This document shows, piece after piece, positions 2,359 to 41,512 of a stretch of 64,000 nt of DNA. How positions within the stretch are numbered: the stretch's first letter is position 1; every line of letters begins with the position of its first letter. The stretch is from a phage. The notes beneath the pieces were generated by a model that was not told where the DNA came from, did no database searches, and was given only the letters and a program-made list of their open reading frames with translations. The DNA is taken from NCBI GenBank assembly GCA_017864995.1, contig GCA_017864995.1_4097.1. One strand, given 5' to 3'. The translations under genes were made by a program, and so were the position numbers.

Positions 2359-2525
2359 CACACAAAGAATGGTTAGATGAACTAAAATTTAAACATAATC
2401 CTTTTGGTTTTGGTATACGCCAAGGTCATTATGATGTGTTAAAAGATAAACAACTTTTCAAATCATTTGTACTTGATGAGGATAGTAATCACTGGTACAT
2501 CTATGAGCTTGCAATTAGGAAATAG
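2355..2525 (+). CDS. small protein MTHKEW... (56 aa), paralogue of the MTHEEWM mini-ORFs
   Basis: ATGA overlap with upstream stop; N-terminus MTHKEWLDEL resembles the three tandem ORFs at 3859-4345. Confidence 0.45.
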   Translation: MTHKEWLDELKFKHNPFGFGIRQGHYDVLKDKQLFKSFVLDEDSNHWYIYELAIRK

Positions 2526-2535
2526 AAGATATAGT

Positions 2536-2884
<349 letters not shown>

Positions 2885-2897
2885 CGAGGAATCCAAA

Positions 2898-3095
2898 GTG
2901 ACTAAAGCAGAACTTGTAGCATTATTGGAATCATATCCCGATGATGCATGTATTGAAGTTGTTCATAGTGCGAGACATTTTGACATTGAAGATGTAGTAC
3001 GTTATAATGACAAAGGTGTACTCATCATGGAACTATGTATTGGTGAAATGAAAACTGTACCCGAATCAGAAAAACGTAAAAATAGTAAACCGTAA
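2898..3095 (+). CDS. hypothetical protein (GTG start)
   Basis: ORF track; GAGGA SD upstream. Confidence 0.45.
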   Translation: MTKAELVALLESYPDDACIEVVHSARHFDIEDVVRYNDKGVLIMELCIGEMKTVPESEKRKNSKP

Positions 3096-3105
3096 GGAAA
3101 ATAAA

Positions 3106-3324
3106 ATGGAATCTACTCTATTAGAAGTTATTAACTCATTAAACGCTGGCGACAATGTTCAAGTACTCCTTCAGGGATACCGTGTAAAAGGTTCAGTAGT
3201 TTTAGTTAATGACACCACTGTTGTTGTAACTGAAACTAACCCGTTTGACAGTAATGAACTTGCTAATATCCATATTGATATTAAAAGTATTATTGGTGTT
3301 GGTGTAACTAAACCACAAGAATAA
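3106..3324 (+). CDS. hypothetical protein
   Basis: ORF track; AGGAAAATAAA-ATG context. Confidence 0.5.
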   Translation: MESTLLEVINSLNAGDNVQVLLQGYRVKGSVVLVNDTTVVVTETNPFDSNELANIHIDIKSIIGVGVTKPQE

Positions 3325-3327
3325 CAA

Positions 3328-3618
3328 TTGTTATTGGGGATTACTATGCATTTTGAAAAATTCAATACAAATCGTAACACACGCATTGACGTTCTTTATG
3401 AAACACAAGACACAATAAGCATTCGTACACGTAGTGGTGATGTATATCATGACTGTACTATTGGTTGGGAACAGGGAAGAACACGTAGTGCAGAATTCGA
3501 TAACTATCGCTTCTACCAAGGGGACACCACAATCTGGCCTGAAGACGTAGAAGATATTGCGATTGAAGATGAACATAAAGATGAATTTATAAAATTTAAT
3601 CCCGAAACCGAATCATAA
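3328..3618 (+). CDS. hypothetical protein
   Basis: ORF track; true start may be ATG 3346. Confidence 0.45.
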   Translation: MLLGITMHFEKFNTNRNTRIDVLYETQDTISIRTRSGDVYHDCTIGWEQGRTRSAEFDNYRFYQGDTTIWPEDVEDIAIEDEHKDEFIKFNPETES

Positions 3619-3632
3619 ATATTGGGACAGAC

Positions 3633-3751
<119 letters not shown>

Positions 3752-3756
3752 AAATC

Positions 3757-3856
<100 letters not shown>

Positions 3857-3858
3857 CC

Positions 3859-4019
<161 letters not shown>

Positions 4020-4023
<4 letters not shown>

Positions 4024-4180
4024 CACATGAAGAATGGATGAATGACATTAATTTTAGATATTCGGGTATCGGTAAATGGCTAAAGTATCATTGGGAATTC
4101 ATTTCAGAGCCACATCTGTATGATAAACTTATCAACGATCCAGCATATGAAATGTACTTAATTGAACTACTGGTACGAAC

Positions 4181-4184
<4 letters not shown>
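4020..4184 (+). CDS. mini-protein MTHEEWM family, copy 2 (54 aa)
   Basis: as copy 1; about 75% identical to copy 1 by eye. Confidence 0.5.
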
Positions 4185-4352
<168 letters not shown>

Positions 4353-4353
4353 G

Positions 4354-4807
<454 letters not shown>

Positions 4808-4835
4808 GTATCTTAATAACAGAAGGTATATTGAA

Positions 4836-5075
4836 ATGAGTAAGTATTTTGTGAGTTATAGTTATAATGTATCACAAAAGGTTCCACGTGGTGATGGAAT
4901 GGGCTGGTCATATGATACATATACTTTAAATGAGTCATGTATCATCGAATTGCAAGAAAAAGACCTTGACATTTTAAAAATCAAACAATATATTCTTGAT
5001 GTTGAATTGGCACATCGTACCGACAACTGTCCAGATGTAAACAACGTCAACATCTTAGTACTAACCAAAGTATAA
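4836..5075 (+). CDS. hypothetical protein
   Basis: ORF track frame; start at ATG 4836 downstream of the promoter. Confidence 0.5.
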   Translation: MSKYFVSYSYNVSQKVPRGDGMGWSYDTYTLNESCIIELQEKDLDILKIKQYILDVELAHRTDNCPDVNNVNILVLTKV

Positions 5076-5081
5076 GATAAA

Positions 5082-5115
<34 letters not shown>

Positions 5116-5470
5116 GAATTCCACAATCAGACGTATATGGTGTAAGTTACGTCGATGTAATCCAGAACAAGATCTCTGGTACTCTAGGAAGTGGTGAATG
5201 TTAACCTAGACGGGTTTGATAATTGGACGATAGGCAATTATTACTTGACTAGCAGGTTTAAACTAGAGGTGACAGTCCTTTACCAAACTGGAAAACCGGA
5301 TGGACTTTTATTTAAAAGGGTAAGGCGTGGAAATATGTTTACAGTAGTTGCTTTTAGTAGCCTGTACGCCCCACGTCAAGGTAGCCGAAAGGCAAGTTAA
5401 AACGGGTGGTTATAAAGCTGAATTAACAGCGGCGTTTAAAAGCGTCACCATCCATTTTTTTAATTAAAGT
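5116..5470 (+). ncRNA. candidate structured non-coding RNA or long leader transcribed from promoter 5085-5113
   Basis: about 350 bp between promoter and next SD with no SD-preceded ORF; GNRA-like CGAAAG hairpin GGTAGCCGAAAGGCAAG; ends in T-run at 5453-5461; ORF-track ORF 5191..5400 has no SD. Confidence 0.3.
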
Positions 5471-5477
5471 TGGTGAT

Positions 5478-6297
<820 letters not shown>

Positions 6298-6310
6298 ATA
6301 GGAAATTAAA

Positions 6311-6496
6311 GTGCAACTTTTAATTCTTTCAATATTGTATATTATTATAATGGTTCCGATATCAATACGTTTAATTACACTTGAACGATTTTTATCGAAA
6401 CATGGAAATAGATCTATGATCTTTGTACCAATCGGGTTGATATTGTTTGGTATATTTTCATTTATAATGGGAATTAACGCTACATTCATTTCATAG
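6311..6496 (+). CDS. small hydrophobic protein (GTG start)
   Basis: ORF track; hydrophobic segments. Confidence 0.4.
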   Translation: MQLLILSILYIIIMVPISIRLITLERFLSKHGNRSMIFVPIGLILFGIFSFIMGINATFIS

Positions 6497-6505
6497 GAAA
6501 CAAAT

Positions 6506-7036
<531 letters not shown>

Positions 7037-7081
7037 GATTCCCGATTCAGTAGCTTATAAAGCAGTTCCGTGTGTGCCTAT

Positions 7082-7173
<92 letters not shown>

Positions 7174-7192
7174 AGAGGTACTTCGAGTATGC

Positions 7193-7318
<126 letters not shown>

Positions 7319-7320
7319 TA

Positions 7321-7523
<203 letters not shown>

Positions 7524-7574
7524 GCCTCCCCTCAATGCGAAAGAGTATGGAGACTTGTTGGTTATCTTACTTCT

Positions 7575-7657
<83 letters not shown>

Positions 7658-7660
7658 TCA

Positions 7661-7733
<73 letters not shown>

Positions 7734-7750
7734 CAAAATAAAGGTACACT

Positions 7751-27937: not shown

Positions 27938-28129
27938 ATGTTGATTTATCAATGTGATAACATTCGTGTTATGCAGCATCCCTACTTACAAATCTTTGAT
28001 GTGCAGCAGTATATGGAAGGTGATGATCCAAGAACCTATGGTCGTAAGTATGATTACTTCACTGTAAAGCAGTGTCATAACATCAAAGAAGTACGACAAT
28101 TAGTTCAAGAACTTCAAAATAAAGGTTGA
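27938..28129 (+). CDS. hypothetical protein
   Basis: start at ATG 27938 after GAGGACTAAACAT. Confidence 0.45.
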   Translation: MLIYQCDNIRVMQHPYLQIFDVQQYMEGDDPRTYGRKYDYFTVKQCHNIKEVRQLVQELQNKG

Positions 28130-35872: not shown

Positions 35873-36220
35873 TTGATAATGATTTTCTACACTAATGCTT
35901 TTGCTTATGCTATTGCATCAATCTACATTGTGTACTTCTTATTTGGTGGAGTACTGTACTTCTTTAAGTACAAAACATTGTTTAACCGAATGTATCCAAA
36001 TCATCCAATTGTTGTAGTACTTTTGATTATTTCTGTTGCTCACATCATTGTAGAAACAATAATGGGTATTAGTGCAGTACATTACAGTCTAGGTACTATT
36101 GTGATTATTACTATGATCATCGCATACATTTTAGTAATGGGTTTTGGTTTATTTGGAAATGTAGCAATGAAATTGTATAATCGAATCAAAACATTACGTG
36201 ATAATCTACCGGAGCGTTGA
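35873..36220 (+). CDS. small polytopic membrane protein, same family, copy 2
   Basis: C-terminus RIKTLRDNLPER. Confidence 0.55.
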   Translation: MIMIFYTNAFAYAIASIYIVYFLFGGVLYFFKYKTLFNRMYPNHPIVVVLLIISVAHIIVETIMGISAVHYSLGTIVIITMIIAYILVMGFGLFGNVAMKLYNRIKTLRDNLPER

Positions 36221-36221
36221 G

Positions 36222-36566
36222 ATGTATAATTTAAATTTAATATCATATATCATAACAACACTGTTTACTTTCTATGCCTTTGTTGGTATACTCCTACTGT
36301 ACTTTAAATTTTATAAACTTTTTGATCGTTTTTATCCGTCATTAGAACATGAATTCTTATTAGTGATGTACATATGTCTAACGTTTATGTCTACATTTTT
36401 CACTGCATCTGATGGTATCATTGGTATTAAAGCTGAAGAACCAAATGGGAGTACGCTTGTTGCCTTTATTCTGGTAGGATTTTTCAGTACTTATATTACC
36501 TTTATTTCAGGATGTACCGTGATTGATTATCTTGTGAAATTACGAGATAAAATGCCAAATCGATAG
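36222..36566 (+). CDS. small polytopic membrane protein, same family, copy 3
   Basis: C-terminus LVKLRDKMPNR; start at ATG 36222. Confidence 0.55.
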   Translation: MYNLNLISYIITTLFTFYAFVGILLLYFKFYKLFDRFYPSLEHEFLLVMYICLTFMSTFFTASDGIIGIKAEEPNGSTLVAFILVGFFSTYITFISGCTVIDYLVKLRDKMPNR

Positions 36567-38694: not shown

Positions 38695-38964
38695 ATGTAC
38701 GCACTGTATAATAAAGAAAAGAAACGATTTGCTAAGGTTGAAATTTCGATTGATACATTTGACATGTTGGAGTACTGTATTGTAACGGACCTATATGCTA
38801 ACTTGTATTACGTTCTTGATGACGTATCAGTACTGCAACGATTGCTTGAGAATTCCAAAAGTCAATGCCAGGGCATCCATGATGGTTCATCTTATGAAAC
38901 ACCTGAGTGTTCCTACGGCTATCTGGACGGGTATGAGATTGTGAAGTTGGGGATTGTTGAATAA
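38695..38964 (+). CDS. hypothetical protein
   Basis: start at ATG 38695 after GGAGAT. Confidence 0.45.
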   Translation: MYALYNKEKKRFAKVEISIDTFDMLEYCIVTDLYANLYYVLDDVSVLQRLLENSKSQCQGIHDGSSYETPECSYGYLDGYEIVKLGIVE

Positions 38965-38976
38965 ATGGATTAAACA

Positions 38977-39390
38977 ATGAAGAAGTGTATCACGTGTAAT
39001 ATTGAAAAAGACATTAGTGAATTTGGTATAAGAAGTGATACTGGGAAACATAGAAATACATGCAAAGGTTGTAGTAATATTACCAGTAAGAGAACCAGAA
39101 ATAAAAAAACTGATGTAAAAACACTTGAAGAAATCAAAAGAAAAAATAAAGATTTCATGACCAGAGTTAAATCATTTTATGGTTGTAGTGTTTGTATGAT
39201 GAAGTATCCAGAATGTTTAGACTTTCACCATCTTGACCCTAATACCAAAGAACATACACCAAGTTCTATGTTCAGTAAAAGTCGAGATGCTATCAAAGAT
39301 GAAATTCGAAAGTGTATGATTCTTTGTTCTAATCACCATCGCATGGTACATTCTGGTAGACTATGTTTGATTGAAAGAAAAAAGGGTTGA
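38977..39390 (+). CDS. HNH endonuclease-like protein
   Basis: CITCNIEKD ... CKGC ... LDFHHLDPNTK ... CSNHHRMVH: CxxC, HH, N, CxxxHH pattern of HNH nucleases. Confidence 0.6.
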   Translation: MKKCITCNIEKDISEFGIRSDTGKHRNTCKGCSNITSKRTRNKKTDVKTLEEIKRKNKDFMTRVKSFYGCSVCMMKYPECLDFHHLDPNTKEHTPSSMFSKSRDAIKDEIRKCMILCSNHHRMVHSGRLCLIERKKG

Positions 39391-39416
39391 CTTCGGTCAG
39401 CCCTTTTTGCTATAAT
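39384..39416 (+). terminator. terminator/promoter cassette
   Basis: GGGTTGAC-TTCG-GTCAGCCC hairpin + T-run; TTGACT 39387-39392, 18 nt, TATAAT 39411-39416. Confidence 0.7.
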
Positions 39417-39444
39417 CATTTCATCGAAACGAGAGGATGAATAC

Positions 39445-39888
39445 ATGACACGCATTAACTTAGTACACGTTAAAGAACTTGCTGACCAACATCTGATGGC
39501 TGAATATCGTGAACTCCCACGTGTGTTTGGTGCTGTACAAAAACATGTTCAAGCACGTAAGCGAGTCCGTGATTTCAAAATTAACAGTACTTACCTGTTA
39601 GGTTCAGGTCATGTAACATTCTTCTACAACAAGTTATTGTACTTACAGAAGCGTCATATTGATATTGTTAACGAATGTTTGCGTCGTGGGATGAAGATTC
39701 AAAACACTGAAGTAAACGACATTAGCGGATTCCCTACTGAGTTTTGTAATGACTACGTACCATCGGAGTCAGAGATTAAAATGTCTCGTGAGCGTTTGAT
39801 TGAGAAGCTACAGATGAAGCCTACGTGGTATAAGTTTACTGATGTTGAGTTACCTGAGTATTATCGTTCTATGATAGTGTATTACTAA
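39445..39888 (+). CDS. denV: pyrimidine dimer DNA glycosylase / endonuclease V (T4 DenV homologue)
   Basis: N-terminal [31 protein letters not shown]...KRVRDFKI...[10 protein letters not shown] matches recalled T4 endonuclease V almost residue for residue, including catalytic N-terminal Thr2 and Glu23 context; C-terminal PTWYKF also conserved. Confidence 0.9.
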
Positions 39889-39988
39889 AAATACACCATA
39901 AATGAAGAAATTATTTAATACAAATGTGTTGACCAGTGGTTGACATTTATGTTAACATATCAGTACTGAAAACTAAAGAGATTGAGTA

Positions 39989-41443
39989 ATGTTTGAAGAA
40001 TTTTACATGAACTTAAAAAATGAAAAAGTATTCATACATAGTGAATGTGGGATGTCATTTCAATTCATTGATAATAGTATTCTTCCAGATTACTATAAGA
40101 ATGTGATCAATAAATTGAGAACCATAAATTCAAACATTACGATTTTTGGATTCTGTGTAAGCTCATTAGATGAGCTATCATCTAAATCAAAAATTCTTTT
40201 CATGTATAAGAATGTTTTATATTTAAATATGGATCAACATACCTTAAAAAATAAAATTTCCAAAACAACAGATTTGAAATTTGTAGTTCCATATAATAAT
40301 GATAACTATTTTTATTACATTACCCAAAAAGTGAAAAAATTTGGGGCATGTATTTTTGAAAATGAAAAAATAAGTGATGGTGCAAATACTATAATTAAAT
40401 ACAAATGTCACGACGGTCATATAACCAACAAAACTATAAAGGCGATTCACAATAATCCAGATAAATGTATGATGTGTGCTGGCATAGCCCCACTAACCCA
40501 AGAAAATGCATCATCTATCGTTGCGGAGAAATGTAAAGAAAAAAATCTTGAATTTACTCCATTTACATATATCAATATTTCTACCAAAATAAATCTATAT
40601 TGTAAGATTCATGATTATTCTTGGGTATCAGTGTATAATAACATCAGGAATGATGGGTTTGGGTGTAAGTATTGTGCAAGTGCAAAAAATTCAATGCTAC
40701 GCAAACCAAAAAACCCACAACAAGAAATTGAAAAAATATGTGTTGAGAATGGGTATAAATTAGTGGAGCCTTTTGTATATACCAATCAAACCACAGTCAT
40801 TCATTTAATGTGTGATAAACATCCAATACCCCACACATGGAAGACTGCTTATTCATCTTTGGTATATTCAAAGACTAAGTGTAACTTATGTCAAACACAT
40901 AAATCATCTAGGGCGAATATCATTAATAAAGAAGAACGTAAAGCTCAAGTTCAAGCAAAAAGTTTAAAAAATGACTGGGTATTGAAAGATTTTGAATTTG
41001 GGGGAAGTGTTTGTAGAAATATACATCTTGAATGTCATAAGCATAGTCGAGTACATAAGTGGACAACAACCTATCATCATTACATTGTTCGTGATCAAGG
41101 TTGTGCAGCCTGTAATAATGGTCATACACAGCAATATGCTTATATTAATACTATTTTAGACAATGATTTACCTGTGGCTTTAAAATATGGTATTGAAAAA
41201 CAAAAAGGAACAAGAGTTAAGACACAAAATAGAAAATCATTATTTAAAGTACAGTCATTGTATGTTTATGTATTCCAAAGCGTAGAACAGTGCAAGAACG
41301 CTGAAAAAGAATGTAAGAAGATTTTTGGAAAAGGTATTTTATCTAAACGCGAAATGTGTGATGGATATACTGAAACAACCACAATATTAAATTTGGGTAA
41401 AATCATTGAAATCTATGAAAAATGGGGTGGCGTAAAACAATAA
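39989..41443 (+). CDS. hypothetical protein with four tandem Cys/His zinc-ribbon-like repeats
   Basis: four repeats of the pattern C-x-[DK]-H-x(2-6)-W-x(10-20)-G-C-x(2)-C (KCHDGH...KCMMC; CKIHDYSW...GCKYC; CDKHPIPHTW...KCNLC; CHKHSRVHKW...GCAAC). Confidence 0.55.
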   Translation: MFEEFYMNLKNEKVFIHSECGMSFQFIDNSILPDYYKNVINKLRTINSNITIFGFCVSSLDELSSKSKILFMYKNVLYLNMDQHTLKNKISKTTDLKFVVPYNNDNYFYYITQKVKKFGACIFENEKISDGANTIIKYKCHDGHITNKTIKAIHNNPDKCMMCAGIAPLTQENASSIVAEKCKEKNLEFTPFTYINISTKINLYCKIHDYSWVSVYNNIRNDGFGCKYCASAKNSMLRKPKNPQQEIEKICVENGYKLVEPFVYTNQTTVIHLMCDKHPIPHTWKTAYSSLVYSKTKCNLCQTHKSSRANIINKEERKAQVQAKSLKNDWVLKDFEFGGSVCRNIHLECHKHSRVHKWTTTYHHYIVRDQGCAACNNGHTQQYAYINTILDNDLPVALKYGIEKQKGTRVKTQNRKSLFKVQSLYVYVFQSVEQCKNAEKECKKIFGKGILSKREMCDGYTETTTILNLGKIIEIYEKWGGVKQ

Positions 41444-41451
41444 TAAGAAAA

Positions 41452-41484
41452 GGGTTGACTTCGGTCGGCCCTTTTTGCTATAAT
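41452..41484 (+). terminator. terminator/promoter cassette
   Basis: GGGTTGAC-TTCG-GTCGGCCC hairpin + T-run; TTGACT 41455-41460, 18 nt, TATAAT 41479-41484. Confidence 0.7.
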
Positions 41485-41512
41485 TATTTCATCAACTGAT
41501 GAGGATAACGAA

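Follow-up and report, generated by a model that had tools for sequence, protein, structure and literature searches.

Putative homing endonuclease genes on either side of a resident denV gene in a jumbo coliphage of the Asteriusvirus type

This work concerns the surroundings of the UV-repair gene denV in a 64,000-nucleotide stretch of phage DNA (contig GCA_017864995.1_4097.1 of assembly GCA_017864995.1; hereafter the window, meaning this whole stretch), which megablast assigns to the Asteriusvirus-type (121Q/PBECO4-like) jumbo coliphages, such as 121Q, PBECO4 and fEgEco12, and whose GC content is 35%. Three open reading frames (ORFs) are found here on the plus strand, at 38977-39390 (137 amino acids), 39445-39888 (147 amino acids) and 39989-41443 (484 amino acids), exactly where a first-pass annotation, made by a model from the sequence alone, had placed them. 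They encode, in this order, an HNH-type endonuclease (HNH), the denV product and a Cys/His-repeat protein (REP), and they lie between two genes that are kept in the relatives. The region itself is variable, since no megablast record reaches 80% coverage of the 6.2-kb stretch that surrounds the locus. Synteny was compared over 15 fetched Asteriusvirus loci and one contig with a near-identical REP gene (the REP twin), i.e. 16 related loci; the states of the HNH slot were tallied over about 34 distinct genomes, and nucleotide matches to the REP cassette were searched in 50,697 phage records. The features of the locus (including two terminator/promoter units of the type known as PeSL) are the following:

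38695..38964, plus strand: left anchor, a gp216-like gene (phrog_8563), 90-100% identical at the amino-acid level in 15 relatives
38965..39375, plus strand: HNH insertion of about 411 bp, defined against an empty site given below
38977..39390, plus strand: free-standing HNH endonuclease gene, 137 amino acids (PHROG match, readable motif)
39376..39444, plus strand: PeSL-1 with the 5' untranslated region and ribosome-binding site of denV; strong unit at 39384-39416 (repeat count, folding, promoter match)
39445..39888, plus strand: denV, pyrimidine-dimer DNA glycosylase/AP lyase, 147 amino acids (Pfam, PHROG and PDB matches)
39876..41447, plus strand: REP cassette, about 1.57 kb (junction alignments)
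39929..39958, plus strand: weak promoter-like site, TTGACC-18-TAACAT with TG (9/12 match, in the 100-nt spacer before REP)
39989..40378, plus strand: N-terminal region of REP, residues 1-130, with no assigned fold (AlphaFold2 pLDDT mostly below 50)
40379..41119, plus strand: four tandem CapR-like (treble-clef, CHCC) zinc-finger modules of REP (alignment, Pfam, AlphaFold2)
41120..41443, plus strand: C-terminal nuclease domain of REP, T5orf172/GIY-YIG type, residues 378-484 (107 residues)
41444..41512, plus strand: PeSL-2 with the 5' untranslated region of the ATPase gene; strong unit at 41452-41484 (right slot boundary in every relative)
41513..42283, plus strand: right anchor, an AAA-type ATPase gene (phrog_1250; Pfam and PHROG matches, kept in relatives)

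The sequence of denV is that of an intact T4 endonuclease V homologue, as had been recognized at first pass. Its product passes the membership threshold of the Pfam family Pyr_excise (PF03013; 55.8 bits against a cutoff of 23, E=6e-15), matches phrog_1183 (E=7e-59) and aligns with the T4 enzyme (PDB 2END) over residues 1-131 of 138 (E=3.9e-54), keeping T2, R3, R22, E23 and R26, positions at which the stretch MTRINL...AEYRELPRV matches T4. In T4 endonuclease V, Thr2 provides the alpha-amino nucleophile, Glu23 is catalytic, and Arg3, Arg22 and Arg26 bind DNA. The gene lies between the gp216-like and ATPase genes in 15 of 15 Asteriusvirus loci and in the twin contig, whatever the nuclease content of the locus, and from this constancy of position (16 of 16 relatives) the gene is resident and not mobile. 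The difference from the T4 enzyme (2END, 1VAS) is a tail that varies within Asteriusvirus (144-147 residues in total, or 171 with an acidic end). Three types of C-terminus are found among the alleles, namely a 171-residue form with the acidic tail, a 144-residue form ending in RSMI and a 145-residue form ending in TEMIK; the allele in the window is of the short RSMI type, with three extra residues (VYY) supplied by the downstream insertion. This allele is also mosaic, its 5' part being 100% identical to those of fEgEco12, vB_Ec-M-J and Ecwhy_1 and its 3' end being of the SHEFM2K/slurp01/PBECO4 type.

Outside the genus, denV has other neighbours in Alcyoneusvirus K64-1 and Mimasvirus CBB, those in K64-1 being entirely different. 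In CBB (a Pectobacterium phage) and in GAP32, a gene of the REP family lies about 650 bp upstream of denV (in CBB, the gene CBB_516, annotated as hypothetical; the pair occupies fetched-locus 2445-3419 and 4072-4506), so the association of denV with this nuclease family recurs in another genus. In Salmonella phage SD-15_S21, denV and the gp219-like ORF that follows it form one continuous reading frame (259 amino acids, fetched-locus 2842-3621), which may be a deletion or an assembly artefact.

The gene immediately upstream of denV had been read as an HNH nuclease, and we arrive at the same assignment. The protein matches phrog_2255 ("HNH endonuclease", E=4.6e-32) and four further HNH PHROGs, and contains a readable HNH motif with flanking zinc-binding cysteine pairs (C4xxC7 and C29xxC32 in an N-terminal ribbon, followed by C70xxC73, H84H85 and C113x3C117-S-N119-H120-H121); NCBIfam gives no match to it, and the PDB sequence search returns nothing meaningful. 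Every cysteine and histidine is kept in eight of the eight intact alleles, with a ratio of non-synonymous to synonymous divergence (dN/dS) of about 0.28, and their synonymous divergence alone is well below that of the neighbouring denV when both are measured in one set of genomes (dS 0.067 and 0.18), which is consistent with a more recent spread. The HNH protein is most similar to the products of small HNH genes in GAP32 and FelixO1-like phages (38-49% identity). A packaging-type HNH protein, i.e. a terminase partner, is an unlikely alternative for a gene that lies in the early region, occurs sporadically and leaves the deletion remnants described next.

In the window and in seven fetched relatives, the insertion of about 411 bp lies between the stop codon of the gp216-like gene, which forms its left edge, and the terminator/promoter unit before denV (the start of the left anchor at 38695 is the one annotated in the relatives). 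The HNH start codon follows that stop by 12 nt, with no promoter between them, and the HNH stop codon (TGA) falls within the terminator stem of PeSL-1. The precise empty site, GAATAA / AGAAAAGGGTTGAC (the slash marks the insertion point), is found in 121Q, PBECO4 and SD-15_S21. Other genomes hold further states of the slot: SHEFM2K, Turkey3 and slurp01 retain a remnant produced by internal deletion between two AAGTGTAT repeats (microhomology), which leaves an in-frame mini-ORF beginning with MKKCMILCSNHHRMVH; Ecwhy_1 and CMSTMSU have an unrelated 270-bp ORF; and in ph0011 the HNH gene is accompanied by a further 3.4 kb with additional genes, one of them for a Dam-type methyltransferase. Over the roughly 34 genomes, the tally is of about 10 intact genes, 7 remnants, about 12 empty sites, 3 other ORFs and 2 different left flanks. 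The gene thus combines sporadic presence at one position with a precise empty site, as a homing gene does, and it would be, on these grounds, a classical free-standing homing-endonuclease gene, with each stage of its life cycle represented. In the REP twin (GCA_050001325.1, contig DBIGRJ010000003.1; fetched-locus 2467-2889) the slot is in a fifth state and holds 150 bp that lengthen the gp216-like ORF and encode a Cys-rich tail of about 50 residues (CTCDDC...CQDC).

On the other side of denV, the segment between its 3' end and the terminator/promoter unit preceding the ATPase gene is variable in every relative. In the window this slot is occupied by the REP cassette, which joins the resident sequence on the left at the third base of codon 144 of denV and on the right at the A-run of PeSL-2. 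It is empty (denV, unit and ATPase gene, with 67 nt) in fEgEco12, EC.P1 and ph0011, of which the first two are nearest to the window in backbone, with 99-100% identity to it on either side of the slot. Occupied slots in other genomes carry cargo of 2.2-4.4 kb, and a large modular nuclease is part of it in almost all cases (six belong, like REP, to phrog_681, and three, of HNH type, to phrog_559/9084; at least eight are different). Outside the window, REP itself is known only from a 99% identical twin, carried by a 357-kb contig associated with E. coli (GCA_050001325) and by one SRA contig, neither of which has the HNH gene. Positions 39889-41118, which include the finger array, have no nucleotide match in the phage records searched; the nuclease domain is 74% identical to that of Turkey3 and 65% identical to that of slurp01. 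As with HNH, presence is sporadic, at a single position and with a precise empty site.

The distribution of the two nuclease genes separates them from each other and from denV. HNH occurs without REP in fEgEco12 and EC.P1, the twin genome (GCA_050001325) has the same denV and REP with no HNH gene, and the window has both; because HNH and REP assort independently, a single HNH-denV-REP cassette is ruled out. The first-pass annotation had suggested that the repair gene sits inside one such mobile cassette, and this part of it fails on the independent assortment of the nucleases around a denV present in 16 of 16 loci. Its more general statement, that both neighbours resemble mobile or homing functions, holds: the two proteins belong to homing-endonuclease families, and the gene-order comparison then proposed as a check on mobility finds both genes variable in the relatives rather than universal and syntenic. 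The observation is confirmed and its interpretation in terms of mobility partly supported. The nuclease genes are also poorer in GC (0.31 for HNH and 0.25-0.32 for REP) than the resident genes (0.385-0.415; 0.385 for those next to HNH), and neither has a paralogue elsewhere within the 64-kb window.

REP matches phrog_681 (E=1e-52), and an exhaustive phmmer search returns 1166 cluster representatives as its homologues. Its N-terminal 130 residues are 25-33% identical to the N-termini of other nucleases found in the same slot (JP4, vB_Ec-M-J, PBECO4). They are followed by the four tandem modules R1 (residues 131-170), R2 (171-231), R3 (232-304) and R4 (305-377), with repeat units of 65-74 residues, each with a Cys/His pair followed, at a distance of 20-23 residues, by a CxxC pair (C140/H144 with C160xxC163, C205/H208 with C226xxC229, C275/H278 with C298xxC301 and C349/H352 with C372xxC375). 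These modules had been described at first pass as four zinc-ribbon-like repeats, which is roughly right, the fingers being of the treble-clef CapR/DUF4379/DUF723 type; the C-terminal nuclease domain had been missed. The number of four units in the pattern then given (C-x-[DK]-H...W...G-C-x2-C) also stands, and the pattern itself needs correction in R1, which has C-x3-H, no Trp and no Gly before CxxC, and in R3, which has Lys in the place of Gly. Scanned alone, R2 scores 28.5 bits with Pfam CapR, above the gathering cutoff of 24.2, R3 is weak (E=0.041), and R1 and R4 give no Pfam match; the whole protein stays just under the CapR cutoff (22.1 bits). Among 96 homologues, Pfam recognizes CapR in 78, DUF4379 (a "probable treble-clef zinc finger", according to Pfam) in 45, DUF723 in 43, T5orf172 in 11 and MUG113 in 4 (the last two counted at E<=0.01). 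Residues 131-377 are predicted to form a DNA-recognition array.

The remaining 107 residues retain every position that is invariant in an alignment of 40 sequences (Y385, K399, G401, R409, Q413, E439, D458, G459 and E462), within motifs of GIY-YIG type (Y385, K399-Y-G401-I, R409, E439 and D458-G-x-T-E462), and these residues would map onto the catalytic residues of GIY-YIG enzymes. The AlphaFold2 model of this domain (pLDDT 91.9) has the three-stranded sheet and flanking helices of a GIY-YIG-like fold, and its Foldseek matches among viral models are named GIY-YIG, T5 Orf172, homing endonuclease and CapR-homology. In the full-length model, R2-R4 are mostly above a pLDDT of 90 and the nuclease domain is confident, with R1 at 65-68 and residues 1-130 not confident. 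NCBIfam has nothing for REP, and PDB sequence searches with REP and with a profile of the nuclease domain give nothing meaningful. Taken together, the 484-residue protein is a putative homing endonuclease of the T5orf172 family (GIY-YIG superfamily) with CapR-like zinc fingers.

Some further observations concern the fold and the relatives of this protein. Each of the modules R2-R4 (40499-41119) is predicted as helix, three strands and helix. A Foldseek search of the PDB with full-length REP returns weak matches to tandem double-stranded RNA-binding domains (TARBP2, Loqs, NF90; E~1e-3, probability 0.85, TM-score below 0.2), which we hold unreliable because of the multi-domain geometry; a distant fold resemblance between the modules and these domains is possible on the basis of the models. 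Some members of the CapR-finger family have other C-terminal nucleases, either DUF559/MTES_1575 (of PD-(D/E)XK type) or an HNH-like "TIDHKKS...NLC" domain, which points to swapping of nuclease domains on a common finger scaffold.

The two terminator/promoter units have the sequence characteristics of PeSLs, i.e. a stable GC-rich stem-loop with a T-run, an overlapping predicted early promoter of sigma-70 type, repetition along the sequence and a position at insertion/deletion boundaries. In PeSL-1 the stem-loop is AAAAAAGGGTTGAC-TTCG-GTCAGCCCTTTTT, the -35 box (TTGACT) lies within the stem and the extended -10 box is TGCTATAAT (an 11/12 match to sigma-70); predicted folding energies are -19.5 kcal/mol (z=-5.2) for PeSL-1 and -18.0 kcal/mol (z=-4.5) for PeSL-2. 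The string GGGTTGACTTCGGTCRGCCCTTTTTGCTATAAT occurs in three exact copies, against none expected, and in at least six looser plus-strand copies in the window. PeSL-1 precedes denV in all relatives, and it is there that homology across genera begins: about 55 nt of unit and 5' untranslated region are 86-92% identical in RaK2, K64-1, Erwinia pEa_SNUABM phages, Serratia BF and vibriophages (86% over 55 nt of PeSL in the KVP40-like Vibrio phages phi-pp2 and TCU-VP03). The earlier proposal that each gene has its own terminator/promoter unit is reduced by this analysis to the two strong units listed above. HNH has no promoter and ends within a terminator stem, and REP has only the 9/12 site, which may be its own promoter, sites of this kind in the region being no more numerous than in shuffled sequences; a hairpin at 39926-39946, examined as a terminator after denV, is not significant (z=-1.87). 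In 121Q, half a PeSL (AAAGGGTTGACTTCGGT / TACACAAAGG) directly follows the long denV allele (fetched-locus ~6756-6790) and is, from its sequence, the scar of a recombination event at the left-hand edge of the gp218-222 cargo. The sequences of the window and of the REP twin also part at PeSL-1. These two cases mark recombination through PeSLs as a real contributor, and as the main rival or complement to homing. We found no paper describing PeSLs in Asteriusvirus, in a literature search that was not exhaustive. Along the early region of the window, PeSL-like units occur on the plus strand at 28126, 31717, 32497, 34760, 39384 and 41452.

Based on these results, we consider it probable, with good though not full confidence, that a resident, functional denV is flanked here by two independent, free-standing genes of homing-endonuclease type that would have spread by homing, in a hyperplastic spot of the early region of an Asteriusvirus-type jumbo coliphage where denV is driven by a PeSL-type unit. 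HNH is inserted exactly between the gp216-like stop and the PeSL, where it would use upstream transcription and the resident terminator, and REP, with its nuclease domain and four fingers, separates the end of denV from the next PeSL, its insertion having rewritten the last denV codons. During co-infection, each nuclease would cut the allele without its gene, and recombinational repair off the nuclease-carrying genome would copy the nuclease gene along with flanking DNA (co-conversion), which would yield both the sporadic distribution and the mosaic denV alleles. Exchange boundaries would then be expected at the 3' end of denV, at the PeSLs and in the shared coding region of the nuclease domain, with the PeSLs and this shared sequence supplying homology for swaps. 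After fixation, the genes would decay, as in the HNH deletion remnants, or give way to other modular nucleases.

Several observations weigh against this interpretation. The Pfam models T5orf172 (PF10544) and MUG113 give no match to REP itself, and only 11 of its 96 relatives match the former; Pfam HNH_2 stays below threshold for the HNH protein (13.5 bits against a cutoff of 21); site-specific cleavage by either protein is a prediction. No polymorphism in the PeSL or in the first 440 nt of denV tracks the presence of HNH, the variable sites being mosaic, and hence no signature of target immunity is visible. REP is known from only three near-identical sequences, and its spread cannot therefore be followed. 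Finally, homologous recombination through PeSLs could by itself give the same pattern of insertions and deletions without any nuclease activity. According to this last explanation, cassettes are shuffled by recombination between units of about 45 bp and the nucleases are passive cargo or serve another purpose. The mechanism is published (the mini-circle model of Arbiol and Comeau, PMC4122927), PeSLs bound the variable slot in every relative, at least six units are present in the window and the unit is kept across genera; the half-PeSL scar after denV in 121Q and the breakpoint between window and twin point in the same direction. It accounts less well for the HNH insertion, which has no PeSL on its left, where the junction is the upstream stop codon, for the left junction of REP, inside denV codon 144 and outside any PeSL, or for the fact that the inserts in nearly every genome are specifically members of homing-endonuclease families. 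We regard shuffling as the sole process as a real but somewhat doubtful alternative, and it is not mutually exclusive with homing.

A small "HEG island", with HNH, denV and REP moving as one cassette and the repair gene as cargo, would have a precedent in the published islands in which homing genes bracket cargo (PMC10448857); denV with its upstream PeSL is indeed the unit of cross-genus homology, and the REP-family gene close to denV in Mimasvirus CBB fits as well. The model is nevertheless largely refuted by presence and absence of the genes, since denV is syntenic in all the related loci whatever their nucleases, HNH and REP assort independently, denV (dS 0.18 against 0.067 for HNH) is older at the locus and its neighbours in Alcyoneusvirus K64-1 are entirely different; we consider it very unlikely. 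It is also improbable, to a lesser degree, that REP is no homing enzyme at all and serves instead as a weapon against a competing phage or satellite (like ICP1 Odn) or as a domesticated regulator (like PLE CapR). The same family has yielded both a repressor, CapR, and an anti-satellite nuclease, Odn (PMC8096241, PMC10448857), and REP is very rare, has a unique finger array and may have its own promoter. The nuclease domain, with all its invariant residues, argues against a pure repressor, and a slot where one nuclease gene takes the place of another, and which near-isogenic relatives leave unoccupied, is what selfish turnover typically produces.

Barth, Dunham and Seed (2023; PMC10448857) have described putative homing-endonuclease genes of the T5orf172 type with repeated CapR/DUF723 fingers, as well as nuclease genes that lie at the boundaries of exchange and nuclease genes that replace one another at a single position; Netter et al. 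(2021; PMC8096241) showed that the CapR finger binds DNA. REP has the same layout as the ICP1 nucleases of the gp174/gp165/gp121 type (tandem CapR-like fingers, then a C-terminal domain of the GIY-YIG superfamily), and, like them, is free-standing, sporadic and located at an exchange boundary, with domains shuffled with neighbouring nucleases; in tblastn it is 27% identical to the ICP1 "tcgB putative homing endonuclease" (E=2e-16). It differs from the family in having four fingers and an extra N-terminal region of 130 residues, in a nuclease domain too diverged for the Pfam T5orf172 model and in zinc ligands of the form C-x2/3-H...C-x2-C (CHCC), against CxxC...CxC in CapR (PMC8096241). It is carried by a jumbo coliphage of the Rak2-like lineage, to which PMC10448857 draws no particular attention, and it adjoins a non-essential repair gene, whereas the genes compared adjoin an essential one.

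The units described above resemble the PeSLs of T4-like myoviruses (Comeau 2014, PMC4122927; Arbiol 2010, PMC2839356) in the A3-4G3-loop-C3T3-4 stem-loop with an overlapping sigma-70-type promoter of nt-1/KVP40-type consensus (PMC4122927), and in their location at indel boundaries of a hyperplastic early region; they differ in belonging to a Rak2-like jumbo phage and in having the -35 box within the terminator stem and a UUCG-type loop. As to the flanking genes, HNH and REP are intergenic, AT-rich, sporadic in close relatives and placed between conserved genes, and are linked to mosaic alleles and to putative co-conversion of flanking markers, features shared with the Seg and Mob genes of T4. 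The latter are reportedly the GIY-YIG (Seg) and HNH (Mob) families of T4 free-standing homing endonucleases, as Edgell, Gibb and Belfort are said to have set out in 2010. HNH and REP are unrelated to Seg and Mob in sequence, and HNH is here a putative endonuclease of 137 residues with an N-terminal zinc ribbon.

As an instance of homing-endonuclease turnover, the locus is clean but ordinary: the PeSL motif and the two nuclease families had been described before, known phenomena are extended to Asteriusvirus, and current understanding is unchanged. One practical consequence is for annotation, where the 484-residue protein can be named a T5orf172-family (GIY-YIG-like) putative homing endonuclease with CapR-like fingers, instead of a hypothetical protein. 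To our knowledge, homing by T5orf172/CapR-finger nucleases has yet to be characterised biochemically. At the locus studied here, nature provides near-isogenic pairs, with flanks 99-100% identical and one nuclease gene of difference (for REP, the window and fEgEco12 or EC.P1; for HNH, the window and GCA_050001325), and the locus preserves every stage in the life of HNH, from empty site and intact gene to microhomology-deletion remnant and replacement. It could therefore serve as a test bed for whether nucleases of this kind home and what finger arrays recognise, as well as for the joint role of nuclease genes and PeSL motifs in setting the boundaries of recombination in jumbo phages.

A more far-reaching combination of these elements, which we think rather unlikely, would have REP as an unsampled T5orf172 architecture (N-terminal domain, four CHCC fingers and a diverged GIY-YIG domain) and the slot between denV and the ATPase gene as a "landing pad" in which two catalytic classes exchange finger arrays in situ, with the PeSL and the shared 3' end of the nuclease-domain coding sequence as fixed recombination anchors, or else REP as a weapon against a co-infecting phage or satellite. 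If the landing-pad reading were true, the locus would be a natural system evolving new DNA specificities.

Some minor observations concern the surroundings of the locus. The downstream ATPase gene (41513-42283) exists as two alleles with 55-59% protein identity (WPEC3, ph0011 and CMSTMSU against the rest), so the right flank is also an exchange zone. An Rfam scan finds only tRNAs, none of them inside the locus region; they form a cluster at 3662-7734 of the window (Ser(tga), Ser(gct), Met(cat), Asn(gtt) and two Thr(tgt)). At about 45000-46000 the GC skew changes sign and the cumulative skew reaches its maximum, which suggests a switch of coding strand or of transcription direction. Finally, arrays of consecutive paralogous ORFs (~110-123 amino acids, many hydrophobic segments), with stop and start codons overlapping as ATGA, are found at 35873-36566 and 42351-44790, and are kept in the relatives with differences in copy number (SHEFM2K and JP4, for instance, have one extra copy).

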